From Acidimicrobiales bacterium (lineage in GTDB: Bacteria; Actinomycetota; Acidimicrobiia; Acidimicrobiales; RAAP-2): 64,000 nucleotides of DNA. Numbering within the stretch: the stretch's first letter is position 1; every line of letters begins with the position of its first letter. Positions 10,642-53,074 of the stretch are shown here, one piece after another. A model generated the notes under the pieces. It was not told the origin of the DNA. It made no database searches and was given only the letters and a program-made list of their open reading frames with translations. The stretch covers positions 862-64,861 of the forward strand of contig JBKQMB010000044.1 in the NCBI GenBank assembly GCA_052326605.1. Direction: 5' to 3'. The translations under genes were made by a program, and so were the position numbers.

Positions 10642-10705
10642 GAGCCGACTGACCACCGGGGCGTGACAGCGGGCCAGCTGCTCGCGGGCCTGCTCGCGCC
10701 CCACC

Positions 10706-12969: not shown

Positions 12970-12987
12970 GGCGGGCGTCCCTCGAAC

Positions 12988-13923
12988 TCAGTCCGGGGAT
13001 TCCACCCCGGCCAGCTCCTTGGCCGCCCGGTCGATGTCCGACTGGTACTTCAGCAGGATGTGGAGGGTGTCCTTGGCCTGTTCGGCGTCGATCGACTGCA
13101 CTCCCAGCACCACCAGGGTGCGCGCCCAGTCGAGGGTCTCCGACACGGAGGGGGACTTCTTCAGGTCGAGCGTGCGGATCGACCGCACGATGCGCGCCAC
13201 CTGGTCGGCCAGCGCCTGACTGATGCCCGGCACCCGGGTCTCGATGATGGCGCGCTCTCGGTCGAGCTTGGGGTAATCGATGTGCAGGTAGAGGCACCGC
13301 CTCTTCAGGGCCTCGGACAGTTCGCGGGTGTTGTTCGAGGTGAGGAAGACCAGCGGGATCTGCGAGGCCCGTACCGTGCCGAGCTCGGGGATGGACACCT
13401 GGTACTCGGAGAGGATCTCGAGGAGCAGCGCCTCGGTCTCGAGCTCCACCCGGTCGACCTCGTCGATCAGCAGCACCACCGGCTCGGTCGACTTGATGGC
13501 CTCGAGCAGGGGCCTGGTGAGCAGGAACTCCTCGGAGAAGATGTCCTCTTCGAGCTGCTGCCACGACTGGCCCGAGTCGGCCTGGATCCGGAGCAGCTGC
13601 TTCTTGTAGTTCCACTCGTAGAGGGCCTTGGACTCGTCGAGCCCCTCGTAGCACTGGAGGCGGATCAGCCGGCTCCCCGTGAGCCGGGCCACCGACTTGG
13701 CCAGTTCGGTCTTGCCGGTCCCCGCCGGGCCCTCCACCAGCACCGGTTTGGCCAGGCGGTCGGCCAGGAACACCACGCCGGAGATCCCCTCGTCGGCCAG
13801 GTAGTCCACACCGGCCAGGCCGGTGCGCACCTCGCCGATGGAGCCGAAACGGGGCACACCGGCCACCGGGAACCCGGTGGTGATCTCCTCGGCGGCCCGG
13901 TCGGGTCCGACCACGCCGCTCAT
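12988..13923 (-). CDS. MoxR/CoxD-like AAA+ ATPase
   Basis: Walker A (VEGPAGTGKTELAK), LIRLQCYEGLDESKALYEWNYKKQLL and Walker B (VLLIDEVDR). The ATG at 13923 overlaps the proA stop (ATGA). The listed 590-aa ORF is an artefactual upstream extension. Confidence 0.9.
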   Translation of the reverse strand: MSGVVGPDRAAEEITTGFPVAGVPRFGSIGEVRTGLAGVDYLADEGISGVVFLADRLAKPVLVEGPAGTGKTELAKSVARLTGSRLIRLQCYEGLDESKALYEWNYKKQLLRIQADSGQSWQQLEEDIFSEEFLLTRPLLEAIKSTEPVVLLIDEVDRVELETEALLLEILSEYQVSIPELGTVRASQIPLVFLTSNNTRELSEALKRRCLYLHIDYPKLDRERAIIETRVPGISQALADQVARIVRSIRTLDLKKSPSVSETLDWARTLVVLGVQSIDAEQAKDTLHILLKYQSDIDRAAKELAGVESPD

Positions 13924-36073: not shown

Positions 36074-36294
36074 GGCGTGCAGTGTAGGTGGCCCGGACGG
36101 AGGCCCACCTGACCGGGGCACGGTACGTCGGGCTCGGCCGGAGCCGGCCAGGTCGACCGGATCCCGGGGGCCACTCCCACCGTTCCGGCCCGGGGGCCCG
36201 ATCGCCCCGCGCGGTAAAGAATCGGTGTCCGCCGGTCGAAGAGAGAAGTGACCATACTGTCGATTGCGGGTCGGCCCGGGTGCCGAGGGGTTGG

Positions 36295-39200
36295 ATGACT
36301 AGCCACGTCGAGGTTGAACAGCCGAACCAGACCGAGCAGACCGGAGGGCCCCGGGACGTCTCCGGAGGGGTCGTCCACGTCCTGATCAACCTGGTCCGCA
36401 CGGGGGCGGGCGACGCCGGGGTGGCCCAAGCACTCGCTCTCGCCGGGGAGCAGCGTTCCTTCTCCGCCCTCGGGGACCTGGCCTGCTGGAGCTCGCTCGC
36501 CGAGACCGTGGCGCTGTTCAACGCGGTGGCGCTGGTGACCGGCAACGATGCCATCGGGCTCCACGTGGGCCAGGAACTCCTGCACGCCCCCGACGGGACC
36601 GACTTCGTCGATCGCCTGCGGGCCCTTGGCTCACCGGAGGCCGCCCTCAAACAGGTGACGCCACTACTGGACCACTTCGAGACGACCTCGGAGGCGGTGG
36701 CCCTGGAGGTTGCCGCCGATCACGCGCTGATCCAGGTGTCTCCCCTGCACTCGGACAGCCGGCACGCCCACCTGTGCGAGATGACCAGGGGACTGCTCTC
36801 CGAGATCCCCGGGCTCTACGGATTGGAACCGGCGCTGATCACCGAGCACGAATGCAGTGCCAGGGGTGGCCGGTACTGCCTGTACGCCCTGAGTTGGGAC
36901 GACGGAGGGACCGGACCCGGCCCGGATGCCGGGGCGGAGTCTCCGCTTGATGACCGGGACGAGACCCACGAGGACGACGCTGCCGGCCGGGGGCCGGGGG
37001 ACCGCCCGACGTGGGCACCCGTGGACGTCGTCGAGCGCCTCGAGGCGGAAGCCGTCGCCGAGCGGACGGCGGCCGAGCACACCGTCGCCCGGCTGAACTC
37101 CGAGGTCGACCAGATGGGCACCCTGTTGGAAGGGGCGTTCTCCACGAACCTCGAACTGCTCGACGACGACGCCGACTCACTGCTCTCCCAGATCGCCGCC
37201 CGGGCCGACGCGGTGGTTGCCGCCCCCAACTACCTGCTGATGATCAGGGTCGGTCCCGGCGCACCCATCCAACTCCACCACCGTGGGCTCGAACCCGACG
37301 AGGCCCAGTTGCTCGCGGCAGAGCTGTGGAGGGAGCACCCCGACGATGCCGGCGGGAGGCGTCTCATCGTCGACATCGCCTCACCAGGGCGCCGGTACGG
37401 CCGACTGGCCGAGTTCCTCCCGCCAGGCGCCACCCGCTCCCCGTCAGAGGAGCGGGTGCTGCACCTCTATGCCAAGTACGCCGCCAATGCACTGGACATC
37501 TTCGGTGAGGTCACCAACGCCAGGCGCAGCGATGCCACGGCACGGACGCTGCTTTCGTTCTCCGAGGCCCTTTCCCAGGTGACACACCTGGCCGAGTCGG
37601 TGCAGCTGTTGGCGGACACCGTGCCGTCGGTGACGGGCTGCGACCAGTGCACCGTCTACCTGTGGGACGGCGAGTACGGGCAGATGGTCCCGCGGGCCCG
37701 TACCGCGGGCCTGGAGGATCCCCATGCCCACCTGGGCCCCGTCGTTCCCGTCACCGGATCCGGGCGACCCGCCACCAGGCGGTCGACCACGCCGGGAGGG
37801 CATGAAGAACGCCCTGTCGGCGCAGTACACGAGCCGCCCGAGTCCGGGGTCGTCACCATCCGCATCGACACCCTCGAAATCGAGCGGTTGTTCGTTCACC
37901 ATGAGGTCATCGTCCTCGACGCGTCGACCGAAGATCCCTCCCTGAGGGAGCTGCTCCATCGCTCCCGCACCACCTCATCGGTGGTGGCCCCGCTCTTCGC
38001 CGCCGGCGAGTTCCTCGGAGTGATCGCTGCCAACTTCGGTTCGGTCGGCTCGACTGGGTCCGTCCACGACCCTGACCTCCACGAGCGGCTGGGCGGCCTG
38101 GCCGACCTGGCTGCCACTGCCCTCCAGAACCTCGAGCTGCTCGAGCGGGTCTCCCACATGGCGTGGCACGATGCCCTGACCGGACTGCCCAATCGCCGCC
38201 TGTTCGAGGATCGGGTCGAGCAGGAACTGGTCCGGTCCCGACGGGTCGGCGAGCCGGTCTGCATGTTCTTCGTCGACCTCGACCACTTCAAGGAGGTGAA
38301 CGACACGCTGGGCCACGGGGCCGGGGACGACCTGATCCGACAGGTGGGCGAGCGCCTGGTGGACACCGTGCGCAGCCAAGACACGGTGGCGCGGGTGGGG
38401 GGTGACGAGTTCGCCATCCTCCTGCCCGGACTGGCAGACCAGCTGGCCATCGACCAGCTCGCCCAGCGCACCCTCGATGCGATCGGCGCCCCGTTCATCG
38501 TGTTCGACGAGCAGGTCGAGAACACTGCGTCCATCGGCATCGCCATCGCCCCCGAGCACGGCGACTGCTACGACGACCTCCTCAATCGGGCCGACGCGGC
38601 CATGTACCGCGCCAAGGCCCTGGGCCGGAACACCTTCCAGATGTACATGGCCGAACCCTGGCCGGCCGCGACCGACCGGACGGCGTTCGACGACCGCACG
38701 CTGCTTGCCGAGCTGTCCCGTGCGCTCGAGCGCGACGAGTTCTTCATCCTCTACCAGCCCTACATCGACCTCCACTCCGCCCAGGTGGTCGGAGTCGAGG
38801 CCCTCGTCCGATGGAACCACCCGACCATCGGGGTGCTGGAGCCGTCCTCGTTCATCTCTCTGGCCGAAAAGAGCGACATCATCGTCGCCCTGGACAGATG
38901 GGTGCTCGACCAGACCTGCCGACAAGCCCGGGCCTGGCTCGACCGCGGGCTGGATCCGCTGCGGCTCTCGGTGAACCTCGCCTCCCGCGACCTCTCGCAT
39001 CCGGACTTCTTCGACTGCGTCGAGCGCACCCTCGAGATGACACGCATCGATCCCGCGTCACTCGAGCTCGAGATCACCGAGCGGGTGGTCCTCGACAAGT
39101 CGGGACCGGCCAAGGCGAACATCGAGCGGCTGCGGCAGCTCGGGGTGAAGTTCACCATCGACGATTTCGGAAGCGGGAACTCCTCGCTAAGCCGTATCGG

Positions 39201-39513
39201 CACCTTTCCGGTCAACACACTCAAGATCGACCGGACTTTCGTGCAGGTACTCGGCCCCGACGACGAGAACAACGCGTTGGTGGCCGCGATCATCTCGATG
39301 GCCGACCGGCTTGGACTGGCCTGTGTGGCCGTGGGCGTCGAAACCTCGCTCCAGAACCAGGTCCTCCTCCAGCGCGGCTGCACCACCGCCCAGGGGTACT
39401 TCTTCAGCCCGCCGCTCCCACCCGAGGACATCGAACAGGTGATGGCCACCATCGCCTCGACCGATGGACCGACGGACCGACCCCCGGCGTCCGACGACCA
39501 CCGGCCGGCATGA
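36295..39513 (+). CDS. Multidomain c-di-GMP turnover protein (unassigned N-terminal sensor region, GAF-like regions, GGDEF, EAL)
   Basis: GGDEF site intact (RVGGDEFAILL) and EAL site intact (VEALVRWNHP ... DDFGSG). The start is taken at ATG 36295. The maximal ORF begins at 36088. Confidence 0.9.
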   Translation: MTSHVEVEQPNQTEQTGGPRDVSGGVVHVLINLVRTGAGDAGVAQALALAGEQRSFSALGDLACWSSLAETVALFNAVALVTGNDAIGLHVGQELLHAPDGTDFVDRLRALGSPEAALKQVTPLLDHFETTSEAVALEVAADHALIQVSPLHSDSRHAHLCEMTRGLLSEIPGLYGLEPALITEHECSARGGRYCLYALSWDDGGTGPGPDAGAESPLDDRDETHEDDAAGRGPGDRPTWAPVDVVERLEAEAVAERTAAEHTVARLNSEVDQMGTLLEGAFSTNLELLDDDADSLLSQIAARADAVVAAPNYLLMIRVGPGAPIQLHHRGLEPDEAQLLAAELWREHPDDAGGRRLIVDIASPGRRYGRLAEFLPPGATRSPSEERVLHLYAKYAANALDIFGEVTNARRSDATARTLLSFSEALSQVTHLAESVQLLADTVPSVTGCDQCTVYLWDGEYGQMVPRARTAGLEDPHAHLGPVVPVTGSGRPATRRSTTPGGHEERPVGAVHEPPESGVVTIRIDTLEIERLFVHHEVIVLDASTEDPSLRELLHRSRTTSSVVAPLFAAGEFLGVIAANFGSVGSTGSVHDPDLHERLGGLADLAATALQNLELLERVSHMAWHDALTGLPNRRLFEDRVEQELVRSRRVGEPVCMFFVDLDHFKEVNDTLGHGAGDDLIRQVGERLVDTVRSQDTVARVGGDEFAILLPGLADQLAIDQLAQRTLDAIGAPFIVFDEQVENTASIGIAIAPEHGDCYDDLLNRADAAMYRAKALGRNTFQMYMAEPWPAATDRTAFDDRTLLAELSRALERDEFFILYQPYIDLHSAQVVGVEALVRWNHPTIGVLEPSSFISLAEKSDIIVALDRWVLDQTCRQARAWLDRGLDPLRLSVNLASRDLSHPDFFDCVERTLEMTRIDPASLELEITERVVLDKSGPAKANIERLRQLGVKFTIDDFGSGNSSLSRIGTFPVNTLKIDRTFVQVLGPDDENNALVAAIISMADRLGLACVAVGVETSLQNQVLLQRGCTTAQGYFFSPPLPPEDIEQVMATIASTDGPTDRPPASDDHRPA

Positions 39514-39571: not shown

Positions 39572-39657
39572 TCCCATCCCCCCGTTCGTCAGCCCAGACC
39601 GGTACCTTCGAGCCATCCGATCAACGGATGGAACCGTTCGAAGCACGAGGAGGAACC

Positions 39658-39810
39658 ATGGCGTCGTACGAGGGATACTGCGTGAAGTGTCGTGAGAAAC
39701 GGCAGTTCGAAGGCGAAGAGGTCGAGATGGCCAACGGCCGGCGGTCCGCCAAGGGCAAGTGCCCGACGTGCGGCACCGGGATGAACAGGATCCTCGGCAA
39801 GAAGGCCTGA
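39658..39810 (+). CDS. DUF5679-type small zinc-ribbon protein
   Basis: MASYEGYCVKCREKRQFEGEEVEMANGRRSAKGKCPTCGTGMNRILGKKA has CxxC...CxxC. GAGGAGG lies 5 nt upstream of the ATG at 39658. Confidence 0.75.
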   Translation: MASYEGYCVKCREKRQFEGEEVEMANGRRSAKGKCPTCGTGMNRILGKKA

Positions 39811-40819: not shown

Positions 40820-40911
40820 CGGCGTGACGCTATCCCGTACGGCGGGGTCGGGGGAACGCCGCCTGTCCGGTGGCCTACGCTGTGATCCGGCGGCGCGGGA
40901 TGGCGTCGCAA

Positions 40912-40950
40912 CGGGAAGTAGCGCAGCTTGGCAGCGCGCCTGCTTTGGGA
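40912..40950 (+). repeat. attL: orphan 5' half of tRNA-Pro(UGG) (positions 1 to the end of the anticodon loop)
   Basis: CGGGAAGTAGCGCAGCTTGGCAGCGCGCCTGCTTTGGGA is identical to 50871-50909. The sequence after 40950 is unrelated to a tRNA. Confidence 0.9.
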
Positions 40951-41099
40951 CTAGCCAGACGTGAGCGCTGTGCTGACCTGCGGCTGTGCAGGTCGGATGC
41001 AAGCGATCCTCGTGGTGTTATCCGCTCAACTTTCACCGCTGTCGCCCTGAACATTCCCCCACGATCCCCCTTGCGCCTCGCAAACGGTCAGGGTGGGGG

Positions 41100-42752
41100 T
41101 CAGGTGCGGGCGTCCTCAGCCGCAGCGAAGTCTGCCTCGACGCTCTCGTTGTCCTCGACCAGATCCATCAACTCGCGGAGCGTCGTCACCGGCAGGGCGT
41201 CCCGGGGCCAAGACTCCGTGTAGCCGTCGAACTTTCCGCCATCGGTGCTCCCATCCGGTTGGATTCCCCGGTCATGGAGCGCCTTGAGGATGGATGTCTC
41301 CCAGGCCTTCGCCAGGTTGCCATCCATCGGACCTCTCAGGTCCAGTAGGTTCCACCCGCCCTTCTCGTGCTGGGACAGTCGCGACTTCGGATCGTTTGTT
41401 ATGCCAATCTGAGTTAGCCCCCAAGAGGGATGATCCAACAGATAGAGCCAGCCCCTCGCCGACGAATCAAAGCCATGCTTGGCACAACGTGGGCAGCCGT
41501 TTCCCGCTAAGCGATTGTTACCGGGGGCTTGCCACTCGTGATCCGGTCCTTCCGGGCACTTCCACCAGAGTCTCGTGTGGGTTCCCGCGACCACATCGGC
41601 GGGAGTCAGGTCGCCGTTCTTCGTCGGGTGGAACTGGGCGGCAAGCTCCGGGAAGTTGGCCAGGCTGTTGGTCACCGACACCTGGAATCCTGCGCAGAAG
41701 GGGCAGCCGCTTCTGTAAACACGCCTGTTCCCGGTGGTTTGCCACTCGTGGTCCGGTCCCTTCGGGCACTTCCACCAGAGCTTCTTCACGGTTCCCGCCA
41801 CCACATCACTGGGGTTCAGGTCGCCGTTCTTCGTCGGGTGGAACTGGGCGGCAAGCTCCGGGAAGTTCGCCAGAGTGTTGGTCACCGACACCTGATAGCC
41901 AGCGCAGTAGGGGCAGCCGCGTCTACGGCCTACTCGGCCATTGCCGGTGGCTACCCACTCGTGGTCCGGTCCTTCCGGGCACTTCCACCAGAGCCTCGTG
42001 TGGGTTCCGGCCGTTACATGTGCGGGTGTCAGGTCGCCGTTCTTCGTCGGGTGGAACTGGGCGGCAAGCTCCGGGAAGTTCGCCAGACTGTTGGTCACCG
42101 ACACCTGATAGCCAGCGCAGTAGGGGCAGCCCCATCCACTCATACGGCCGCTCCCAGGCGCCTCCCACTCGTGGTCCGGACCCTGCGGGCACTTCCACCA
42201 GAGCCTCCTGTTTGTTCCCGCCACCACATCGGCGGGGGTCAGGTCGCCGTTCTTCGTCGGGTGAAACTGTGCCGCTAGCTCCGGGAAGTTCGCCAGGCTG
42301 TTGGTCACCGACACCTGGAATCCTGCGCAGAAGGGGCAGCCGCTTCCACTAACACGGTTGCCTCCGGTGGCCTCCCACTCGTGGTCCGGTCCCTCGGGGC
42401 ACTTCCACCAGAGCCTCCTGTTTGTTCCCGCCACCACATCGGCGGGGGTCAGGTCGCCGTTCTTCGTCGGGTGAAACTGTGCCGCTAGCTCTGGGTAGTT
42501 GGCCAGGCTGTTGGTCACCGACACCTGTCTGCCCGCGCAAGCGGGGCAGCCGCTTCCATTAATGCGGTTGTTCCCGGGGGCTTGCCACTCGTGATCCGGT
42601 CCTTTCGGGCACTTCCACCAGAGTCTCGTGTGTGTTCCCGCGACCACATCGGCGGGGGTCAGGTCGCCGTTCTTCGTCGGGTGCCACTGAGCCGCCAAGT
42701 CAGGGTGGGTGACCGCAAGGTTGTGAGTCTCAGACGCCCTGGCACCGCCCAT
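41100..42752 (-). CDS. Six-module zinc-ribbon (DUF4379-like, CHCC) array fused to a GIY-YIG-superfamily-like C-terminal domain
   Basis: Six repeats of HPTKNGDL...LWWKCPxGPDHEW...GCPxCAG...NSLANFPELAAQF. The tail reads GWLYLL...QIGITNDPKSRLSQHEKGGW. Confidence 0.85.
   Translation of the reverse strand: MGGARASETHNLAVTHPDLAAQWHPTKNGDLTPADVVAGTHTRLWWKCPKGPDHEWQAPGNNRINGSGCPACAGRQVSVTNSLANYPELAAQFHPTKNGDLTPADVVAGTNRRLWWKCPEGPDHEWEATGGNRVSGSGCPFCAGFQVSVTNSLANFPELAAQFHPTKNGDLTPADVVAGTNRRLWWKCPQGPDHEWEAPGSGRMSGWGCPYCAGYQVSVTNSLANFPELAAQFHPTKNGDLTPAHVTAGTHTRLWWKCPEGPDHEWVATGNGRVGRRRGCPYCAGYQVSVTNTLANFPELAAQFHPTKNGDLNPSDVVAGTVKKLWWKCPKGPDHEWQTTGNRRVYRSGCPFCAGFQVSVTNSLANFPELAAQFHPTKNGDLTPADVVAGTHTRLWWKCPEGPDHEWQAPGNNRLAGNGCPRCAKHGFDSSARGWLYLLDHPSWGLTQIGITNDPKSRLSQHEKGGWNLLDLRGPMDGNLAKAWETSILKALHDRGIQPDGSTDGGKFDGYTESWPRDALPVTTLRELMDLVEDNESVEADFAAAEDART
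41478..42710 (-). repeat. Six in-frame tandem 210-bp repeats (70-aa zinc-ribbon units; the last unit is truncated)
   Basis: The periodicity can be read in both the DNA and the protein. It includes a perfect 95-bp match between 42187-42281 and 42397-42491. Confidence 0.9.
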
Positions 42753-42804
42753 GAAGTGATGTTACCGAGGGGAGCAGTCGCGATTCCTCACCCCAATCCC
42801 AGGT

Positions 42805-43176
42805 TTACGGAATGCGTAGCGAGAGATGGAGCGCCAGGGCTTCGTCCACCTGATCCATGACCGCCGTTGGAAGAGTGTTGATCAAGTTCCCAAGGCGTTC
42901 CTTGGCCACTGTCAGAAGTTGGCCGCAGTAGATAGTCCCACCTTGCTGGTCTAGAAGGTCAGGAGGAAGAGACACATTCTGCGGGTACTGCCTCCGAGGG
43001 ATGGTGTGAGTGATCGCCACGACCGTCACCACCGATCCAAACTCATTGCCTACATCGTTAGACACGACCAGAGCCGGACGCTCGCCTGCCTGTTCGGAGC
43101 CTCGCGTGGGCGAGAAGTCCACCGAATACACTTCGCCGCGACGAGGAGGAATGGGCACCGACGCAGGGTACCGCAC
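42805..43176 (-). CDS. mazF: Type II toxin, PemK/MazF-family endoribonuclease
   Basis: RGEVYSVDFSPTRGSEQAGERPALVVSND...VVAITHT...GTIYCGQLLTVAKERL is a MazF/PemK signature. It has a GTG start at 43176. Confidence 0.9.
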   Translation of the reverse strand: MRYPASVPIPPRRGEVYSVDFSPTRGSEQAGERPALVVSNDVGNEFGSVVTVVAITHTIPRRQYPQNVSLPPDLLDQQGGTIYCGQLLTVAKERLGNLINTLPTAVMDQVDEALALHLSLRIP

Positions 43177-43183
43177 CCCTATT

Positions 43184-43456
43184 TCAGTAGGGGTTGTCCA
43201 TCGACTGGATTGCGGCCGGGGCGGCGAACTCGGCGATGGCGAGTGATGCCGCTGCCTGCTCCTCGTAACCTTGACGCAGGAGAATGACCTTCCACATTGG
43301 CATCCCGGGAGGGGCCTTGCGCACTGGCACGGTCATAGTCGTCCCTGCGAAGCTCGCCCGAAGATAGGCGCTGGTCACTCGCGCAGAAGTTGCCTCGTTG
43401 ATCCCGGAAGGGGAATAACCGTCGGGATTCGTCGCCACTAGTTCGGTGACTGTCAT
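43184..43456 (-). CDS. Hypothetical 90-aa protein in the antitoxin position (no recognisable MazE/AbrB, RHH or HTH motif)
   Basis: The ATG at 43456 overlaps the DUF3467 stop (ATGA). Its stop is 7 nt before the mazF GTG. Third codon positions look coding. The alternative frame 43179..43493 is Arg/Ser/Asp-rich and less protein-like. Confidence 0.55.
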   Translation of the reverse strand: MTVTELVATNPDGYSPSGINEATSARVTSAYLRASFAGTTMTVPVRKAPPGMPMWKVILLRQGYEEQAAASLAIAEFAAPAAIQSMDNPY

Positions 43457-43773
43457 TGTGGCTCCTTTCCGGCATTCGGCCCAGGTCGCTCATTAGCCGC
43501 CATGGCTTTCATGGCATCTTCTCGCAGGCTGACATTCGTTGCCAACGCCCTCAACATGTCATCGACGACTGTAGGCGGAACCTTGATGCGCGCCACCACT
43601 CGGGCAGGAACATTGACCACCGATTCGCCAACCTGAGACTGCGGCAGTCCAGTGACCATGAAATCCAGCGTGAACTCGTGCAGGGTGTGCCAAACGCCTA
43701 TGAAGTTGGCGTAGATGTTCGGCAGGTCGTCCGGCACTTCGATTTGGAAGTTCGTGGTCGGTTCCTCAGGCAT
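43453..43773 (-). CDS. DUF3467-family protein
   Basis: NFQIEVPDDLPNIYANFIGVWHTLHEFTLDF...ARVVARIKVPPTVVDDMLRALATNV fits the DUF3467 pattern I recall (I.I...YaN...v.Hs..EF.lDF ... R..m.P..ak.l..aL). The ATG is at 43773. Confidence 0.75.
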   Translation of the reverse strand: MPEEPTTNFQIEVPDDLPNIYANFIGVWHTLHEFTLDFMVTGLPQSQVGESVVNVPARVVARIKVPPTVVDDMLRALATNVSLREDAMKAMAANERPGPNAGKEPQ

Positions 43774-43868
43774 GACTGAACCATCGTTACACAGGTCAGC
43801 CTCACCAGGCTTGTCAGCGAGGGCCACATCCCCCAGCCTGAACGGTTGCGGCCACGCCAGCCGGGCTG

Positions 43869-44522
43869 TCAGGCGGTCGCGGCGAGTACGTCCAGAGAAA
43901 CTGAGCCGATGACAGCCCTGACCGTAGAAGCGTGCCACCTTCCGCCTCGGGCGGTAGGTATTGCCTCGGCATTCAGATCGTCGGCGACAGCTCGCAGGGA
44001 ACGGCCAGCTGCCCTCTCGGCGGCGATGCGGAGGCGCACGCCCTCGGCCAGCTCGACTGGGCGACCGAGACGGACACCACGGGCCTTCATGGCCTGCATG
44101 GCCTCGGAAGTCCGCTGGCCGATGATCCGGCGCTCCCACTGAGCTACGGAGCCGTAGATGTTGGCCATCAACTCGCCGGTCGGGGTGCTGGTGTCTACGT
44201 CTACGTCAAGGGCCACAAGCGACCAGCCGCCCCGCTTGGCCCGCTCAACCAGGGTGGCGAAATCCCGCACCGACCGGGACAGCCGGTCAAGTTTGGCGAC
44301 GGCCAGCACGTCAGCCTCGCCCCGGTCGAGGCGGTCGAGGGCGTCGGTCAGGGCCGGGCGGTGGATGTTGCTACCCGAGCGGCCCTCGTCGGTGTGGCTG
44401 CCCACCAGCTCCCAGCCACGGGCGTCGATGGCCTTGCCGATGGTGGCGGCCTGGGCCTCCAGTCCGTTGCCGGTGTCGGCCTGCTTGTCAGTGCTGACTC
44501 GGTGATAGGCGATCACTCTCAT
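43869..44522 (-). CDS. Small serine recombinase (resolvase/invertase family)
   Basis: MRVIAYHRVSTDKQ (catalytic Ser context), VAKLDRLSRS, and a C-terminal HTH (GRSLRAVADDLNAEAIPTARGGRW). Confidence 0.92.
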   Translation of the reverse strand: MRVIAYHRVSTDKQADTGNGLEAQAATIGKAIDARGWELVGSHTDEGRSGSNIHRPALTDALDRLDRGEADVLAVAKLDRLSRSVRDFATLVERAKRGGWSLVALDVDVDTSTPTGELMANIYGSVAQWERRIIGQRTSEAMQAMKARGVRLGRPVELAEGVRLRIAAERAAGRSLRAVADDLNAEAIPTARGGRWHASTVRAVIGSVSLDVLAATA

Positions 44523-44561
44523 GTGCCTAGTGTACATAAAAGGTTCCCATCTTGTACAGGA

Positions 44562-44699
44562 TGGGCAGGGGTGGGCGTGCCCGCGGGCGCTCAGCGGCGT
44601 CGGGGGTGATCGTGCTCTGAGCTTGTGGGCAACGGTGGGCGCTCAGGTGGGCATGCCCGCGGGCGGCGGGTCAGGTGCCCAGTGGGCAGGTGTGGGCGT
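44562..44699. repeat. Nested direct repeats with a palindromic core, upstream of the serine recombinase gene
   Basis: GGTGGGCGTGCCCGCGGGCG (44570-44589) matches GGTGGGCATGCCCGCGGGCG (44646-44665). Each contains the palindrome GCCCGCGGGC. TGGGCAGGGGTGGGCGT (44562-44578) matches TGGGCAGGTGTGGGCGT (44683-44699). Confidence 0.6.
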
Positions 44700-44708
44700 C
44701 TGGGCGAT

Positions 44709-45359
44709 CTACTTCACTTTGCCGAGAATCCGCACCGCAGTTGTGTTGTAGTAGGCGAGTTGCCAGTTCCCGGATGAGTCTCCGTAAGCCATCAGACGAC
44801 TTTGTATCTCGCCTGACGGTCCCGCGGTGTCGAACCAGTTGAGGTCTGCTCCTGGAGTAGGAGTGGATAGGACCAGCCAGTAGGTGGTCGAAGGCGAGAG
44901 GACGGGGCGGTCAACTGATCTGAACGAGTAGTTCTGTCCGTTCCAGTCTGTCGTGATCCTCGGTATCGAGATTTGGTCCAGCACCTGGCTGGCGTTGGGC
45001 TGACCACCTTGGTCGGGCACTAGGAGAAATACGGCAGTGTCGTTGGCTGCGCCGAATCTCCCCGAGAGCGGAGCCAGGTATTTGGTTACCTTGATCGAAC
45101 TGCCGGGGGGAGTGACGAAAGACAGCGCTACAGAGGCATTTCCGCCTACTGATCCGACCGTCTGTGACCCTCCAGTGATGTAGTAGTTGTACCAGTTGAC
45201 GCCGTTGTTGGTGAAGTAGTTGTCGTAGACCGTGGCGACTCTGGACGGACTCTGCGCCGCCCTAGCGGGGCCAGACAGTGATCCGAGAGCCAGGACGCTG
45301 GCCGCGACGGCAACCCCAACTAGCAGGATTACGGCTCGCAGGCGCTTTGGGTTTCTCAT
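44709..45359 (-). CDS. Secreted hypothetical protein (signal peptide; Asn/Ser/Thr/Tyr-rich beta-type sequence)
   Basis: MRNPKRLRAVILLVGVAVAASVLALGSLSGPARAAQ signal sequence, with AAGGA upstream of the ATG. The GC content is clearly lower than that of neighbouring genes (by eye). Confidence 0.7.
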   Translation of the reverse strand: MRNPKRLRAVILLVGVAVAASVLALGSLSGPARAAQSPSRVATVYDNYFTNNGVNWYNYYITGGSQTVGSVGGNASVALSFVTPPGSSIKVTKYLAPLSGRFGAANDTAVFLLVPDQGGQPNASQVLDQISIPRITTDWNGQNYSFRSVDRPVLSPSTTYWLVLSTPTPGADLNWFDTAGPSGEIQSRLMAYGDSSGNWQLAYYNTTAVRILGKVK

Positions 45360-45501
45360 TGGGGGGTCCTTTTCCTTGGGCGGCCCACTCCAGCAGCGAG
45401 CCGGAGATGCGCCCGCCCCCTCTCCACCGGCACCTCCTGCATGAGCAACGGTACGCCGGTACCTGGACCGTCAACAGGGCCAAAGGGCACAACCCGGCGC
45501 T

Positions 45502-45557
45502 GTCATCCCTGCTGTCATCCGACCTCCGTTGTCGCCCCGTCATCCCTGGTGTCATCC
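45502..45557. repeat. Four GTCATCC heptamers arranged as two 19-bp direct repeats (operator- or iteron-like) in a divergent intergenic region
   Basis: GTCATCCCTGCTGTCATCC (45502-45520) and GTCATCCCTGGTGTCATCC (45539-45557). The heptamers are 12 bp apart within each pair, and the pairs are 37 bp apart. Confidence 0.6.
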
Positions 45558-45687
45558 GGTCGGTCGGGGGGCCAAAAGCAACCGCCCTACTTGCAACCCA
45601 ATCGGCGAATCCGCTAATGCTCCTCGGTCCTCGGGTCGATAGCGAGATGAAGGGAACCGCGGCAGGGGCGAAAGCGGAGCGAAGAAG

Positions 45688-46554
45688 ATGAGCGACACAT
45701 TGCAGGGACCTGGGTGGTGGCAGGCGTCCGACGGCAATTGGTACGCCCCCGAACTGCATCCCGACTACTCGCCTCCCAAAGCGCCCAGTCCTCCGCAACC
45801 ACCAGAAGTGCCCAATCTTCCTCACGCCACAGCGCCCGCAGCGCCCGGAGCGCAGGGGGCCAATACACCGCCGATACCAGGGTGGTGGCAGTCAGGCGAT
45901 GGTGGTTGGCATCCGCCACAGCCACCGTCTCCCCAGCCTCAGCCGCAGCCAACGTATTCACAGCAACCCACTCAGGCTTTCTCTCCCAGTCAGGAGAAGA
46001 AGTCGCGAACAGGCCTAACGGTCGCTCTCGTCGCGGTACTGGCGCTCTTGGTCGTTGGGGTGATTGCGGCCATCGCAGTCTCGAAGAAAAGCGGGCCATC
46101 GACGACGCCAACCTCAGCTCCTGCGGCAGCAAACACGTCCCCAACTTCGGCTTCCGCCCAGGCTGCTGCGCAAGCTTTTCTTGTGGCATTCAACAACCTC
46201 AACACTGCATCAAACGCTGATTCGGCACAACTCAACGCGAACATGCAGAGCGCGAATCCGGAACCAGTGGCTGCAACTGCCACTATCAACAGTTGGATCG
46301 CTAGCAGCCAGACATTCGATAGAGCGATGGGCTCCATTCAATTCCCCAGCGCCCTTCAATCCGACGTTCAACAAGTGATGTCGGCGAGTGCTGCCTTTCA
46401 GTCGGGCCTGCAACAACTCGGTGCCAACACGGACAACATCAGCAACTACAACTCGGCATTGTCCTCGCTGACCCCATTGAAGGCGAACTTAGTCGCAGCC
46501 ACCAGTGTGTTGGGCGAGGCACTTGGATTGACAAAAGCCACCACGTCTCCGTAG
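45688..46554 (+). CDS. Single-pass membrane protein with two N-terminal GWWQxxDGxW motifs, a Pro-rich linker and an Ala/Ser/Asn/Gln-rich C-terminal domain
   Basis: PGWWQASDGNWYAP and PGWWQSGDGGWHPP (DUF2510-like short motif), a TM segment (LTVALVAVLALLVVGVIAAIAV), and GCGGAG 8 nt upstream of the ATG. Confidence 0.7.
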   Translation: MSDTLQGPGWWQASDGNWYAPELHPDYSPPKAPSPPQPPEVPNLPHATAPAAPGAQGANTPPIPGWWQSGDGGWHPPQPPSPQPQPQPTYSQQPTQAFSPSQEKKSRTGLTVALVAVLALLVVGVIAAIAVSKKSGPSTTPTSAPAAANTSPTSASAQAAAQAFLVAFNNLNTASNADSAQLNANMQSANPEPVAATATINSWIASSQTFDRAMGSIQFPSALQSDVQQVMSASAAFQSGLQQLGANTDNISNYNSALSSLTPLKANLVAATSVLGEALGLTKATTSP

Positions 46555-46760
46555 GTGAGGCTCCCAATCGAGGCCTCCTCGGCGCCAATGGCGGGGGAGC
46601 CAAAAACAATAACCCCTGACGCAACCGAATCGGGCCGTTTTCAATCGCCGCCGTGTGAACCAAAATCGGCGTTTTGGCAACCCCCTTTGGCAGAACCGCA
46701 TCGCCGCCGATCTGGCGGCTCAGGCGGGGTCAGTCACCACCGCGTCTGTGTCTACCGGAA

Positions 46761-46976
46761 TCAGGCGATCCCGGCCCGGCGCTCGACCAGCTCGGCGGCC
46801 TCAGTGAGCAAGGCGCACAGGTGGGCGTCCCGTGGGTTCGTGGCGGGCAGCGCGGCCAAGATGGCCCGGACCTGCTCGGCCACGTCGAGGGCCTCGGTCG
46901 CGGTCAGGCTGGCGAGGGGTCGGCCAGTGGCGGCCTCCACCACGGCGGCGAGGTCGTCGGGGTCCGGGGCGGTCAT
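46761..46976 (-). CDS. Hypothetical small protein (element backbone)
   Basis: The ATG at 46976 overlaps the stop of the upstream ORF (ATGA). The sequence is acidic and Ala-rich, with no recognisable motif. Confidence 0.4.
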   Translation of the reverse strand: MTAPDPDDLAAVVEAATGRPLASLTATEALDVAEQVRAILAALPATNPRDAHLCALLTEAAELVERRAGIA

Positions 46977-47224
46977 CGTCCACACGTCGGGCAGTGGGCC
47001 GAGGCGGCGGCCAGGAGGTCGAGCAGGTGAGCCGCGGCGGCGTCCTGGTCAGCCCGTAGACGGTCGAGCAGGCCGGTGTCGGGCGGCGGCAACAGGGCGG
47101 CGAGGTCGAGTGGTGGCCGCTCGGGCGGGGCGAATCGTTCGGGACATAGGCAAACCACACAGTGTTCCCGGTCGGACGGGTCAGTGGTCATGGCAGTGGT
47201 GTCCTCCACGTAGTTGTCCGTCAT
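46973..47224 (-). CDS. Hypothetical small Cys-motif protein (element backbone)
   Basis: CVVCLC ... CPTC. The ATG overlaps the stop of the upstream HTH gene (ATGA). Confidence 0.5.
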   Translation of the reverse strand: MTDNYVEDTTAMTTDPSDREHCVVCLCPERFAPPERPPLDLAALLPPPDTGLLDRLRADQDAAAAHLLDLLAAASAHCPTCGR

Positions 47225-47748
47225 GTCGTCGCCACCGGGGTCGGGCGGTCGGCCAGGTCGGCGGTCAGCTCGCGGCGCATCTGCTCACGATCATCGCGTT
47301 GTCGTGCCGCATCGGCGTCCCGGAACTCCTGTAACGTCGCCCACACTTCGGGGCCCGTGGGCATGATCCTGCTACCGGCCGGGATAGCATCGAGGTCGGA
47401 TCGACTCTCGGCCGGTGGGCTCAACACCCGGACCACGGCTAGGGCGTCGGTCAGCGATGCGTCGTCATCCAGACGGGACTCGACTACGGACAGGGCACGG
47501 CCCCGGATGCGGCGAGCGCGGTCGGCCTGCTCGGTCACCAGGACTGCCCGGTACTCGGCCAGAGCGTCCCGGAAGGTCGGATCGTGGTTGAACCATCGGT
47601 TGACGGCCTCCCGACTGACACCGGCCAGGACTGCCGCCTCAGTCTGTGACGACCCGGTGGCGAGGGCTTCTACGGCGGCCTGTTTCGCCGGGGTCAACTC
47701 GGCCACGGCATCGAGGACCGGCGCGTCGGTGTCATCGAGCGGGTTCAC
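47221..47748 (-). CDS. HTH-domain protein (phage small-terminase-like or regulatory HTH)
   Basis: LTPAKQAAVEALATGSSQTEAAVLAGVSREAVNRWFNHDPTFRDAL resembles the N-terminal HTH of P27-type small terminases and similar phage regulators. The assignment is tentative. Confidence 0.6.
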   Translation of the reverse strand: MNPLDDTDAPVLDAVAELTPAKQAAVEALATGSSQTEAAVLAGVSREAVNRWFNHDPTFRDALAEYRAVLVTEQADRARRIRGRALSVVESRLDDDASLTDALAVVRVLSPPAESRSDLDAIPAGSRIMPTGPEVWATLQEFRDADAARQRDDREQMRRELTADLADRPTPVATT

Positions 47749-47833
47749 GGCTAGCTCCCTCGGCGTGATCGGTCGTGATCCAGTGTGACACTGTGCGCGG
47801 GTGGCGGCTGCTGGGATCGAGGGTCAGGGGTCA

Positions 47834-48046
47834 TCATAGGTGCCGCCGGGTCCGCGTCCGGTGTGCGCGCACTCGACACGTCGTCGAGCAGCTCAGGGCG
47901 TCGGCCCAGGCGTCGGGGTCGAGCGGCTGGCCGCATACCTGGCACGTCCGAGGGCGTGGCCGTAGGTCATCCCAGAGAGCGAGCTGGGGATCGTCGGCGG
48001 TCGAGGTCTCCCCCGCCCCCGCGGGGGGGTCAGCCACCACGGCCAC
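47834..48046 (-). CDS. Hypothetical small zinc-ribbon-like protein (element backbone)
   Basis: CQVCGQPL...CSTTCRVRAHR followed by a basic tail. It runs in the same direction as its neighbours. Confidence 0.45.
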   Translation of the reverse strand: MAVVADPPAGAGETSTADDPQLALWDDLRPRPRTCQVCGQPLDPDAWADALSCSTTCRVRAHRTRTRRHL

Positions 48047-48185
48047 CAGCTACGGCGAGAGCGGCGTATACAGGCCTCTCGTCGGTCGATGGTGGCACCG
48101 TCGTGGCTTCCCAACAGAGTCCGAGGTCGAACGCCCTAACCATCGGACGGTCGGGCACTGGGTCTGACGGTCGCCATGCCCGGCG

Positions 48186-48986
48186 CTAGTCGAACTCGAG
48201 ACTCAGCCCACTCTCCCAATCCACGGTTGGCCAATCGCCCGCGGCGTCGTTCGCTGCCACAACTGCGGCACAGCAGGTCGGACAGAGACGCGGTCCCCAG
48301 TACGCCTCGACTAGACGTTGGTTGCTCCTTCCGCAGGAAGCGCATCTCGGTAGCTCGACCACCTCGGCCGCTCGATCCGACTCGTCGCCACCGGGCGCTT
48401 CTGTCTGAGGATCACCCACGGCAATGGGTTCGTGGTCGCTCAAGAAGGGGTGGCCGCTGATTTCTTCTCCACAGCCGCATCTCAGCCCATTGCTAGATAC
48501 CTCCATCCCTCTTTGCCGCCTTACCTCGTGAGCCGCCTCTATTCCCTGGTCGTTCGCGTCAGATTGCACAATCTCGACGCGGACCTGGCCCGAACTGGGC
48601 GCGAACTTGACGCCATCTGCCAGGGTCTGATTCGCGTCATCTGACGCCAACAAGGAACGGTTTCCGAGGTTCACCAGGCGGCCATGCTCGATGACCTTCA
48701 CCCGTCCTTCCGTGCCCTGATGAAACGGCACGACTGGCTCCAGTAAGCCAATACCCGCCAGTTGCACAACGACCTTCGTGACCGTCTTCCGGGAAAGCCT
48801 GGTGGCCGCAGCAAGGTCGGTGAGCGTTCCGGCCCATTCACTCGATCTGTACTCGGCCTGTATGGCCAACAGAAGAAAGACCAGTAGTTGGTTTGCCGTC
48901 AGATGGCGTTCTCTTGCGATGTCACATGCAGCGAACGGATCGACTTTGGGCCACTTCCACCTTAGCGAACCCCGTTCGCCGGTCAC
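48186..48986 (-). CDS. Winged-helix N-terminus plus C-terminal Cys clusters; candidate replication or regulatory protein of the element
   Basis: LTANQLLVFLLLAIQAE...LTDLAAATRLSRKTVTKVVVQLAGIGLLE (wHTH-like). The C-terminus has CGCG, CASCG and CPTCC. The GTG start overlaps the upstream stop (GTGA). Confidence 0.6.
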   Translation of the reverse strand: MTGERGSLRWKWPKVDPFAACDIARERHLTANQLLVFLLLAIQAEYRSSEWAGTLTDLAAATRLSRKTVTKVVVQLAGIGLLEPVVPFHQGTEGRVKVIEHGRLVNLGNRSLLASDDANQTLADGVKFAPSSGQVRVEIVQSDANDQGIEAAHEVRRQRGMEVSSNGLRCGCGEEISGHPFLSDHEPIAVGDPQTEAPGGDESDRAAEVVELPRCASCGRSNQRLVEAYWGPRLCPTCCAAVVAANDAAGDWPTVDWESGLSLEFD

Positions 48987-49243
48987 TTGCCTGTCCCCCG
49001 CCGCCGACGCGCTCTAGCCGACTTCAACGCCAACCCTGTGAAGTACGCCTTCTTCGCCGCCTCGGCACGACGGTGGCGCTCTGCCTCAGGCAGCACCCCC
49101 TCAGGGTCAACCTGGCGGTCGAAACGGTCACGGAAGGCCGCCCGTGCGTTTGCAGTTCTGGCCGCCGGATCAGCCGTCCTGGACCAGGACACCTGAGCGG
49201 CGAGACGGCCACGCAAGCTCTGCTCGGCTGGTGACATCGACAT
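48983..49243 (-). CDS. Hypothetical basic protein (element backbone)
   Basis: 86 aa, Arg/Ala-rich with a basic C-terminus. It is co-directional with and overlaps the next gene. Confidence 0.5.
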   Translation of the reverse strand: MSMSPAEQSLRGRLAAQVSWSRTADPAARTANARAAFRDRFDRQVDPEGVLPEAERHRRAEAAKKAYFTGLALKSARARRRRGTGK

Positions 49244-49336
49244 GTAGAAGCAACCCCTTCGGGTGCTCCGGGTGCCGACGCCGGAGCGAAGCTTCTACCT
49301 GATGGCCTGGCGGGCTAGTAGTCGATCACCGTTGTA

Positions 49337-49810
49337 CTAGACGCGGGGCGGGCGAGGCAAGGAACTGGCCCGCCTGACTCGTACGAGGGGTGGCGGCTCC
49401 GACATCGCCAGGCTGCAGATGGCCGACACTGGCTCTGCGAGGGGGGTGAAGTGAAGAAGAGGCAGCAGTCGTTCGGATCGCTCCATTTCGGATTCAACCG
49501 GCTGCCAGCGGATCGCGCTACCCAATGCAGCGGCACGGTCCGCGATTTGACGGACCCGAAGTTGGTCCAGAACCACCCGCCCATTGCAGCGCACGTTGCT
49601 GCACGCACACTCGCAGAAGCTGAGCGGTGCGCTCTCGCTGACTTTGGACGGATACCAGCGGCGGTCTTCGACATCCCGTTCGCTTCGCTGAGCGATGCCA
49701 GGTGACCGGAACTCGACTGACAACTTGCCACCCGGAGCCTGGAAGACACGGGCGAGTATCCGAGCGCAAGATGGACAGCCAACCTCGGCGACTTGAGATT
49801 CGGCAGTCAT
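49337..49810 (-). CDS. Cys-rich hypothetical protein translationally coupled to the integrase
   Basis: The ATG at 49810 overlaps the int stop (ATGA). Motifs are CPSC ... [10 protein letters not shown]. The alternative frame 49315..49782 looks less protein-like. The C-terminal third is doubtful. Confidence 0.45.
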
Positions 49811-50844
49811 AGCCGGTCCCCTGGTGAGCGGGTCTGGTATGCGGCTCTGGCTCGCTCGTCGGCCGCGCTGGCGCCGTACCGATTCAACATCTCCCTCGTA
49901 CGCCAGCCAACCAGCCGCATGAGGTCGCCCTCATTGCCGCCGTCCGCCAACCAGCGGTGTGCGAATGAGTGCCGGAACAGATGGGCATGGATGTGGCCGA
50001 TTCCCGCCTGCTTGCCCCTGCGCTCCACGATTGAGCGGATACCCGGTGTACCCAGCGGGCCGCGTATACCGAGCCACAAGCTGTCACTCGTGGCCGCGTG
50101 GGGATCCCGTGCCCGAGCGTGGATGTAGCGGTCGAGCGCCCCAGCTGTCTTTGCGCCGAACGGACAGGCCCTGGGCCGCCTCCCCTTGCCCATGACGATG
50201 GCCACCCTCGCATCGAGGTCAACGTCGTTGACGGTGAGATTGGCCAACTCAGACAGCCTCATGCCGGTGTCGAGAAACAGCCGGAGCACAGCAGTGTCCC
50301 GGCGGTCCTCCATGCTCTTGCCCTCGCAGGTAGCAAGCAGTCTGCGCAAGTCCTCGTCGGTCATCACCGGCACCGGCACGTCGGGTACCCGTGGCGGCTT
50401 CATCTTCTCCATCGGTGAGCGAGTGATTTCGCCCCAATCGACCAGGAAGTTGAACAGGGCGGTCAGCGCCCGGTAGCGGTTGTTGGCGGTGGCAGGAGCC
50501 TTGGTCTCTACGAGACGCTCGATGAATGACTCGACGTGCTCCCGGCCGATCTTGGTGACCTCGGTGGGCATCCCGGACTCGCGAAGGAAATCGAGGAGCT
50601 GGTTGGCGGCCTCCGAGTAGGTGGCGACGGTCTTGGCGCTCTTGTTCGCCGCCCGAAGACTGCGCTGGAATGACGGGATCAGCGTGGCGAGGTCGCCTAC
50701 ACTTTCGGTGGTTACCGGGTTCAAGGAAGTGCCTTTCCTGGGCCGGAAGCCCGCTGTAGTGGGAGCGTTGGCTCGCTCGCCATTCCAAAGGTTATCCGCT
50801 GAGGGAGCGTTGTGCAAGCAGGCTCCCAAGGCGGAAAACCACAA
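49807..50844 (-). CDS. Tyrosine recombinase / phage-type integrase
   Basis: SAM-like N-domain ([16 protein letters not shown]...[13 protein letters not shown]) and catalytic-domain motifs (TGMRLSEL ... HLFRHSFA ... LVGWRT...MLNRY). The true start is probably internal to the maximal ORF. Confidence 0.93.
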
Positions 50845-50870
50845 AAGGCCAGTTCACTGGCTATTTTTAC

Positions 50871-50944
50871 CGGGAAGTAGCGCAGCTTGGCAGCGCGCCT
50901 GCTTTGGGAGCAGGAGGTCGCGGGTTCAAATCCCGTCTTCCCGA
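50871..50944 (+). tRNA. tRNA-Pro (anticodon UGG); its 5' 39 nt form attR
   Basis: Acceptor stem CGGGAAG/CTTCCCG, D arm GCGC-AGCTTGGCA-GCGC, anticodon stem-loop CCTGC-TTTGGGA-GCAGG, T arm GCGGG-TTCAAAT-CCCGT, discriminator A. CCA is not encoded. Confidence 0.95.
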
Positions 50945-50981
50945 CACGGCGGATGGCGCTCGCGGCGAACGGCCGCGGGTC

Positions 50982-52781: not shown

Positions 52782-53074
52782 CGTCCGAGATGATCGATCA
52801 TCATGTACCGTCCCACCCGGTTTCCGTGGCACACGACCCCACAGGGAGGGCCGTGTCGTTGGGGAGTCATGGTAGGCACTCGCCTGCCCCACTTCAAGGA
52901 TTTGCGGTCTGCGGCACCACCTGATGGAAGTCGTCGACGCGCCGCCGCGACCGGGTGTCGCCGCGGACCACCCCACTGGGAGCAGCCCGCGCCATCTCGT
53001 TCGACCTTCCGTGTACCGTGCCTGTCGTGGTCGTGGTCACGGGCAAACTGCAAAAGGAGGCATGGGACAACCAG

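Follow-up and report, generated by a model that had tools for sequence, protein, structure and literature searches.

Homing endonucleases with a T5orf172 domain are commonly coupled to zinc fingers: among 229 such enzymes of phages, 200 carry at least one finger of the CapR, DUF723 or DUF4379 type, often in repeated copies (Barth, Dunham & Seed 2023, PMC10448857). The text of that study names DUF4397 (PF14344) and a figure legend names DUF723/4379, which leaves its coverage of DUF4379 ambiguous. Odn (gp88/ORF88 of phage ICP1), a T5orf172 nuclease, cuts DNA in vitro and is inactivated by the E180A substitution (PMC8263062), and CapR, encoded by the PLE satellite of Vibrio cholerae, binds DNA and requires its four cysteines (Netter et al. 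2021, PMC8096241). The homing endonucleases of phage group II introns combine three to five CapR-, DUF4379- or DUF723-like domains with a nuclease of the EDxHD/Vsr type; in a 2025 study in Nucleic Acids Research such arrays were proposed to be DNA-targeted homing endonucleases with thousands of unannotated relatives (PMC12350094). In addition, a gene of Lausannevirus and Insectomime virus joins four DUF4379 domains to a restriction endonuclease domain (PMC5513546), and a family of proteins made of DUF4379 alone has been massively duplicated in Mucoromycota fungi (PMC11291939). Here, we describe a related gene in an Acidimicrobiales chromosome, located on the minus strand at 41100..42752 of a 64,000-nucleotide stretch of contig JBKQMB010000044.1 (hereafter the window, to which all coordinates refer). 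The gene encodes a 550-aa protein in which six DUF4379 units are followed by a T5orf172/GIY-YIG-like tail, and we estimate at roughly 60% the probability that this protein is a sequence-directed DNA endonuclease of the T5orf172 homing-endonuclease type, carried as cargo of a mobile element. The original prediction, which was made from the DNA letters and their translations, stated that no function had been experimentally characterised for this architecture, a statement that the literature has overtaken (PMC10448857, PMC8096241, PMC8263062, PMC12350094).

The open reading frame (ORF) starts with ATG and has its stop codon at 41100-41102; its assignment draws on the ORF list, Pfam and the PHROGs family phrog_681. 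Tandem Repeats Finder describes the gene as a repeat with a period of 210 nt in 5.5 copies (85% matches, score 1539), and in the translation the repeats start at aa 24, 94, 164, 234, 305 and 375, each being 70 aa long except unit 4, which has 71 aa. The layout of six units plus a tail, as originally proposed, is thus borne out. The protein matches Pfam DUF4379 (PF14311, “probable treble clef zinc finger”) in six stretches with E 1.1e-118 and 387.8 bits against a gathering cut-off of 24.5, single units scoring 73-76 bits, and the pattern WWKC-x5-H-x14/15-C-x2-C, that is, Cys-x5-His-x14/15-Cys-x2-Cys, is present in all six, in agreement with the Cys/His/Cys/Cys zinc ribbon claimed at the outset. 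Furthermore, phrog_681, annotated as “endonuclease”, spans repeats and tail at E 7e-47 and matches the tail by itself at E 5e-12. Searches against NCBIfam yielded only spurious low matches to glutaredoxin-like CxxC models.

When the units are delimited by matches to a unit hidden Markov model (HMM), the boundaries fall in a phase different from that of the repeat starts counted from aa 24. In this frame, and from the unit alignment, unit 1 covers aa 11-80 (42513..42722, minus strand, as are all the units) and carries the variable patches HTR / K / QAP-NN-IN-GS / A / R. Unit 2 (aa 81-150, 42303..42512) has NRR / E / EAT-GN-VS-GS / F / F in the same places, unit 3 (aa 151-220, 42093..42302) NRR / Q / EAP-SG-MS-GW / Y / Y, and unit 4 (aa 221-291, 41880..42092; 71 aa through one additional residue) HTR / E / VAT-NG-VG-RRR / Y / Y. 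Unit 5 (aa 292-361, 41670..41879) reads VKK / K / QTT-NR-VY-RS / F / F, and unit 6 (aa 362-426, 41475..41669, delimited with the translation and the unit HMM) merges directly into the tail past GCPRCA. The unit motifs and the three variable patches originally quoted recur exactly in the translation and the unit alignment. The accompanying remark that the scaffold is almost invariant in nucleotides was an overstatement, with DNA identity between unit pairs at 77-89% and the synonymous divergence (dS) at 0.28-0.95. The ratio of nonsynonymous to synonymous divergence (dN/dS) is 0.08 over the 55 scaffold columns, and therefore the protein scaffold is maintained through purifying selection, its conservation not being a product of very recent duplication; in 16 columns selected post hoc as variable, the ratio is 0.58.

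This division into scaffold and patches holds far beyond the gene itself. Family-wide column statistics were collected from 1,097 units of 125 homologs, across which the predicted zinc-ligand columns are conserved at 96-100%. The columns that vary among the six units of the gene are the most variable columns of the family (Spearman 0.64, p 2e-9). Along the unit, the hypervariable columns immediately precede strand 1, occupy the knuckle, recur where strand 2 ends and throughout the short helix, and include the x residues of CPxC and AGx. In these columns, K (2.4x), Y (2.4x), Q (1.9x) and R (1.6x), as well as S and N, are overrepresented. The expectation that the patches would vary on a conserved scaffold is confirmed with many more units. 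Signatures composed of 14 such columns are nearly unique, 1,091 of them being distinct among the 1,097 units. An AlphaFold2 (AF2) model of two consecutive units, built on 59 unit pairs, reached a predicted local distance difference test (pLDDT) score of 96.2 and a predicted template modelling (pTM) score of 0.81, the latter suggesting a fixed arrangement between the modelled units. The modelled unit consists, in order, of two short linker helices, strand 1 (RLWWK) and the Cys...His knuckle, followed in its second half by strand 2 (EWxAx), a short helix with a near-invariant Arg (conserved at 95% family-wide) and the Cys-x2-Cys knuckle. In a Foldseek search, the two-unit model superimposed on chain Fd of 6sga with a root-mean-square deviation of 1.2 Å over 68 columns (31% identity, E 3.8e-4), and the units also match the solved kinetoplastid DUF4379 proteins in sequence (E 7e-7).

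The repeats of transcription activator-like effectors (TALEs) start with LTPxQVVAIAS. The unit motif LTPxxVVAG[ST] resembles this start, with a hypervariable triplet where the variable di-residue of a TALE would be, and faint precomputed matches to Pfam TAL_effector (PF03377) occur in about 15 of 120 homologs (P0009, P0013, P0018, P0022, P0028 and others). No Pfam TALE or C2H2 zinc-finger match was obtained for the protein at E<=0.01. In its predicted secondary structure, the unit combines a hairpin of strands with a short helix, as opposed to the two-helix TALE repeat, and given this difference the TALE-like motif is probably a coincidence.

The tail (aa 427-550, 124 aa; 41103..41474, minus strand) was delimited with Pfam, AF2 and BFVD, and comprises the T5orf172/GIY-YIG-like domain and, following it, an acidic C-terminal helix. 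It contains the motifs GWLYLL, QIGITND and RLSQHEKGGW that had been singled out originally. In an alignment of 23 homolog tails (A1), the invariant residues are Tyr437, Gly450, Ile451, Asn453, Arg458, Gly478, Glu485, Gly510 and Glu513, and their order follows the GIY...(Y)IG...R...E pattern. Tyr437 (41442..41444) is the tyrosine of “GIY”; Arg458 (41379..41381) is the candidate catalytic arginine; and Glu513 (41214..41216), within DGYTE[ST]W, is the candidate catalytic glutamate, which would correspond to E75 of I-TevI and E180 of Odn. His462, the histidine of helix 1, is present as well. Weak matches below the thresholds to Pfam GIY-YIG and T5orf172 are scattered among the 23 tails (12 and 11, respectively). 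An exhaustive profile search with the tail recovered 2,944 cluster representatives at E<=1e-3, of which 1,034 remained at the stricter limit of E<=1e-10; a word-indexed homolog search with the tail alone had returned 10 proteins. Two members of the tail family, both matching the tail profile at E<=1e-22, pass the Pfam thresholds, P0238 for GIY-YIG (22.9 vs 22.6 bits) and P0262 for T5orf172 (20.8 vs 20 bits).

The AF2 model of the tail (pLDDT 90.6) has the order strand-strand-helix-strand-helix-strand-helix, a topology compatible with the alpha/beta fold of the superfamily, in which a three-stranded sheet has the order strand-strand-helix-strand-helix. Compared by Foldseek with the predicted viral structures of BFVD, it produced 49 matches at E<=1e-3, many of them nameless; the named ones include “Treble clef zinc finger”, “CapR homology domain”, “T5 Orf172”, “MUG113”, “GIY-YIG nuclease”, BRO and ICP1 ORF88, the last of which is Odn itself (entry F1D1B0, from a Vibrio phage; E 9.7e-4, TM-score 0.60). 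When 50,697 phage records were searched with the tail by tblastn, no match at E<=1e-3 was obtained, so the link to phages rests on the profile and fold evidence. Taken together, residue conservation, transitive profile evidence and the predicted fold indicate that the tail is a T5orf172-like member of the GIY-YIG superfamily, which refines the original assignment to that superfamily and adds to it the conservation of catalytic-type residues.

The family to which the gene belongs is large and practically unstudied in bacteria. More than 5,600 close homologs of the array were scored, and they are annotated almost wholly as “zinc-ribbon domain-containing protein”. Among the closest homologs, a protein has between 1 and 13 units, most commonly 10, and the top proteins with the same tail have between 0 and 10; the anticipated variation in unit number is thus found over the range 0-13. 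Of the tail-family representatives, 148 were examined, and almost all of them have the tail at the C-terminal end or close to it. The nuclease head is swapped: among the 125 closest homologs, 35 have this tail vs 33 with an unrelated nuclease of the DUF559/MTES_1575 (Vsr-like) type, and in P0150 the same tail family is associated with CapR-type fingers. Positional orthology of units among six-unit relatives was considered and rejected, neighbouring units being 70-88% identical vs 52-80% for the units of the closest homologs. In P0043, a block of several units has been duplicated, with units 1-2 recurring almost unchanged as units 4-5. The likeness of units within an array and this block duplication indicate that duplication and homogenisation shape the arrays lineage by lineage.

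Relatives were detected in 151 plasmid records, with up to 13 matching places in a single record. The 71-kb plasmid CP008938.1 (L091/L092) of Candidatus Paracaedimonas acanthamoebae, an endosymbiont of amoebae, has at least three array ORFs. On this plasmid, one ORF with 10 DUF4379 units and a run of 4+1+8 units over three ORFs were observed (1687-3885 and 10938-14086), the run probably being a disrupted gene; none of these ORFs has a GIY-YIG-like tail and none is listed in the plasmid gene table. A 10-unit homolog of Micromonospora andamanensis (L002/L003, 5694-9764 and 1-3714) directly follows a gene for a 1,356-aa PIN-TPR-GreABC protein. Its surroundings, with Wadjet JetC/JetD genes nearby and a 1,059-aa DEAD helicase downstream, resemble a defence island. 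Another homolog adjoins an IS3 transposase and type I restriction-modification genes, and yet another shares an integrative element with genes for a TrwC relaxase and for VapBC. Relatives are therefore located, as had been foreseen, in plasmids, integrative elements and defence-type islands, and not in core loci.

The gene under study is likewise part of a mobile element, an integrated island of 9.96 kb (40951..50870) recognised by direct repeats, an integrase and G+C content. The island is bounded on the right by tRNA-Pro(TGG) (50871..50945, plus strand, predicted by ARAGORN), the first 39 nt of which (50871-50909) constitute the right direct repeat, and on the left by a perfect 39-nt copy of the 5' half of this tRNA (40912..40950, plus strand), found by repeat search and inspection of the sequence. 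A tyrosine integrase gene (49807..50844, minus strand; Pfam Phage_integrase, E 1.5e-28) adjoins the tRNA. The G+C content drops from ~0.69 to ~0.63 between the direct repeats; in 1-kb windows it is mostly ~0.61-0.66 in the island and ~0.66-0.74 (mostly 0.67-0.71) in the flanks. The nuclease gene is the first gene of the island at the left end, 149 nt from the left repeat. A PemK/MazF toxin gene (42805..43176; Pfam PemK_toxin, E 6e-29) lies 52 nt upstream on the same strand, so that the claim of an adjacent toxin module on a mobile element was correct, and upstream of MazF follows a 90-aa ORF (43184..43456, minus strand) that is a candidate antitoxin by position, with no match in Pfam, NCBIfam, PADLOC or PHROGs. 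Weak matches identify a replication-initiator-like protein (48186-48986; phrog_8102, E 1.5e-4) and a terminase-small-subunit-like protein (47221-47748; phrog_4044, E 2e-6), and no capsid or large-terminase genes were found among the island proteins; this gene set hints at a phage satellite resembling the phage-inducible chromosomal islands (a PICI-like element).

Integrases 73-82% identical to that of the island adjoin tRNA-Pro(TGG) in other metagenome-assembled genomes (MAGs) of Acidimicrobiaceae (L008, L009, L010, L012 and L032; integrase at ~10001-11000 and tRNA-Pro at ~9750-9970 of these loci). The cargo of these related islands is wholly different and contains no DUF4379 gene, which makes the nuclease gene accessory cargo; the tRNA-Pro elements are a mosaic family sharing one attachment site. 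In a further locus (L038), only an integrase remnant was seen, beside an ortholog of Ppx/GppA. A search for empty alleles, using the island integrase in genome contigs and MazF in metagenome contigs, yielded 83 loci, none with DUF4379. As these 83 loci share no other cargo with the island, they are uninformative on homing and no empty allele is identifiable among them.

A direct comparison with a second genome places all differences in the array. The contig L001 of a second Acidimicrobiales MAG aligns to positions 31100-52752 over 21,653 nt without gaps and with 35 mismatches, and all 35 are within a 289-nt stretch of units 2-3 (42108..42396 on the minus strand; 10357-10645 in L001). The counterpart protein, P0003, is 98% identical, and both versions of the array are deposited as separate NCBI proteins. 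Of the 13 amino-acid changes that result from the mismatches, 12 fall in family-hypervariable columns, and a part of unit 3 in L001 is an exact DNA copy of unit 2 of the gene (96/96 nt). Two explanations fit, namely gene conversion between units and a chimeric short-read assembly of the 210-nt repeats. Recombination between repeats within phage T5orf172 genes has been reported (PMC10448857). If the differences are real, nothing else in the region changes as fast as the target specificity. A diversity-generating retroelement was set aside since the differences resemble copies of neighbouring units; a reverse transcriptase gene was not searched for.

These data can be combined into a mechanism in which each DUF4379 unit would fold round one zinc ion, held by Cys, His, Cys and Cys, and the units would pack as a regular array. 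The six units may jointly recognise a long DNA site, with contacts presumably made through ~14 hypervariable positions that precede strand 1, form part of the zinc knuckle, or occupy and surround the short helix with its near-invariant Arg. The C-terminal domain would then cleave nearby DNA by means of Tyr437, Arg458, His462 and Glu513, judging from homology. Specificity would evolve through duplication, loss and gene conversion of units, and the gene would most probably act as a selfish or conflict gene that aids its own inheritance or that of the island, or cuts competing mobile DNA; a role as a housekeeping enzyme is unlikely. A more specific proposal is that the DUF4379 units form a modular, re-assortable recognition system in which each unit reads a few base pairs and the array is retargeted by duplication and gene conversion. 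We regard this proposal as tentative, the odds being about three to one in its disfavour, and a code of one unit per site in the manner of TALEs or zinc fingers is suggested by analogy. Under such modular reading, the 35 mismatches in units 2-3 would be a snapshot of retargeting. Were the units to read DNA in this way, the scaffold could be used like zinc-finger or TALE nucleases, as a new programmable DNA-binding scaffold already paired with at least two nuclease heads.

Several observations weigh against a sequence-directed endonuclease. Direct matches of the gene's tail to the relevant Pfam families remain below the cut-offs, both for GIY-YIG (PF01541; E 0.003, 18.2 vs 22.6 bits) and for T5orf172 (PF10544 and PF13455; E 0.02, 15.6-15.8 vs 20 bits), and the second tyrosine of the GIY-YIG motif is replaced by Gln or Lys in the tail family. 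The Foldseek search of the tail against PDB gave no significant match, I-TevI ranking 40th with E 6, and the hhalign comparison of the tail alignment with residues 1-92 of I-TevI (sequence checked against PDB 1mk0) was not significant, the resulting alignment pairing IGITN..R with VGSAK..R and thereby Arg458 with Arg27 of I-TevI. A PDB sequence search with the tail profile produced chance-level matches only. On the side of the array, the solved DUF4379 domains are exclusively kinetoplastid mitoribosomal proteins and assembly factors, an RNA-protein setting, and none is in a complex with DNA, the DNA binding ascribed to DUF4379 being putative; the units have no match to the Pfam models of CapR (PF21817) or DUF723 even at E<=10; and the array is weakly basic, with a net charge of +3, next to an acidic tail of -10. 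Finally, neither a target site nor signs of homing came to light, nor did an allele in which the gene is missing from its own insertion point, and the defence models of PADLOC (PADLOC-DB 2.0) matched neither the protein nor its two upstream neighbours. Those observations that the original prediction had named as fatal to it and that were open to testing, for instance homologs confined to core loci with a fixed number of units, were in no case made.

The same molecule could serve as a defence or interference effector of a phage-satellite-like island, with the array recognising a sequence of an invading phage, a helper phage or a rival element and the nuclease destroying it. We hold this to be possible, with perhaps one chance in five, as the island combines an integrase with replication-initiator-like and terminase-small-subunit-like proteins in the manner of a satellite lacking capsid genes, the MazF gene adjoins, and homologs are situated beside Wadjet, PIN-TPR and type I restriction-modification genes; there is also the precedent of Odn of ICP1, which destroys the origin of replication of the PLE satellite (PMC8263062). 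However, the satellite-like matches are weak, the empty PADLOC search counts here as well, selfish nucleases also gather in defence islands, and a nuclease with one fixed long target would make a narrow defence. Considerably less probable is a domesticated DNA-binding regulator similar to CapR, with the array bound to a promoter, attachment or origin site and a tail that no longer cuts. T5orf172 homing endonucleases have in CapR a domesticated relative that acts as a repressor (PMC8096241), I-TevI also serves as a repressor (PMC10448857), and the gene is located at the island edge, near the left attachment site. Yet CapR has no nuclease domain at all and the product of the gene keeps one. All 23 divergent tails share the Tyr, Arg and Glu of this domain, and the gene product also has the His, which would be unexpected of a dead domain.

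The RNA-protein setting of the solved DUF4379 structures, all of them mitoribosomal proteins or assembly factors, together with the low net charge of the array, leads to the idea that the array reads structured RNA or proteins and that the tail acts on RNA or otherwise. This is improbable, given that closely similar arrays are fused to two unrelated families of DNA endonucleases, that the same tail also occurs with CapR-type fingers and that the phage homing-endonuclease setting indicates DNA. GIY-YIG enzymes are DNA nucleases, which counts in the same direction. The GIY-YIG and Vsr folds are both found in repair enzymes, and a housekeeping DNA-repair nuclease with a Vsr- or UvrC-like role that merely happens to be located in a variable region was considered on that account. 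It is disfavoured and very improbable, the least credible of the readings weighed here, because direct repeats delimit the integrated island in which the gene lies, related islands lack the gene, the number of units varies between 0 and 13, and plasmids carry copies, sometimes several per replicon. The reading of the gene product as a sequence-directed endonuclease borne by a mobile element is the one retained below.

The remaining features of the locus are peripheral to this question. The 90-aa ORF overlaps by 4 nt the stop of a DUF3467 gene (43453-43821, minus strand), upstream of which lies a gene for a short serine recombinase of 222 aa (43869-44537, minus strand). The recombinase contains a full Resolvase domain and only the start of a “Recombinase” domain, and may be a truncated large serine recombinase that shares the island with the tyrosine integrase. 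A scan of 40900-44700 revealed no sigma-70-like promoter, and there was no terminator-like site in the gap between the MazF and nuclease genes; four plus-strand “terminators” in the scan were discarded as unit repeats scanned in the wrong orientation. On either side of the island lies a GGDEF-EAL signalling gene (36088-39513, plus strand, and 50982-52976, minus strand), and a small DUF5679 zinc-ribbon gene (39628-39810, plus strand) is placed between the first of them and Ppx/GppA.

Among the known systems, the gene is closest in layout to the phage T5orf172 genes (PMC10448857), with which it shares tandem zinc fingers at the N-terminus, a T5orf172 domain at the C-terminus, a variable number of units, repeats visible in the DNA and a position at the boundary of exchanged DNA. 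In contrast to these, it resides in an integrative island of an Acidimicrobiales chromosome rather than in a lytic phage, has six units (up to 13 in close relatives) compared with fewer in the phage examples quoted, and has a tail below the Pfam T5orf172 cut-off; its units are strict DUF4379 (Cys-x5-His ... Cys-x2-Cys) and not CapR (CxxC...CxC). Odn resembles the gene product in having a T5orf172-type catalytic domain and a separate N-terminal DNA-binding module, putative in the case of the gene product. This module is a RepA_N domain in Odn as opposed to zinc fingers, and Odn lacks the His/Tyr of helix 1, the gene product having His462. The activity and target of Odn have been established experimentally, whereas cleavage by the gene product is predicted. 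The zinc-finger module of CapR is likewise akin to the parts with which T5orf172 homing endonucleases bind DNA, and CapR is encoded on a mobile island, but it is a repressor with a single finger domain and no nuclease, and the units of the gene do not match the CapR model.

The Vsr/DUF559-fused arrays have the same order of array and nuclease and closely similar units (44-60% identity to the array of the gene), with a nuclease from an unrelated fold family, PD-(D/E)XK/Vsr (DUF559, MTES_1575). I-TevI of phage T4 displays the GIY...[YIG]...R...H...E residues in the same order and spacing, a gap-free alignment by eye bringing Tyr, Arg and His into register, and shares the modular “beads on a string” design, but its nuclease is N-terminal rather than C-terminal and its DNA binding relies on a helix-turn-helix, with a single zinc finger in the linker. 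TALE and C2H2 arrays offer an analogy only: they too consist of tandem units in variable number, in each of which hypervariability is limited to a few polar or basic positions on a conserved scaffold, and differ in fold, with no sequence relationship. The proteins mt-SAF33 (6sga chain Fd) and mS66 (7aor chain at) share the fold of the DUF4379 domain with the units, but are components of eukaryotic organellar ribosomes and have no nuclease domain. In the light of the published phage and Vsr architectures, the gene is a bacterial, island-borne, six-unit member of an architecture already described, and the functional reading given to it here is an existing working hypothesis of the phage literature. 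By tying the bacterial members to the work on phage T5orf172 homing endonucleases, the comparison gives a large family a testable function as long-site, sequence-directed nucleases of mobile elements.

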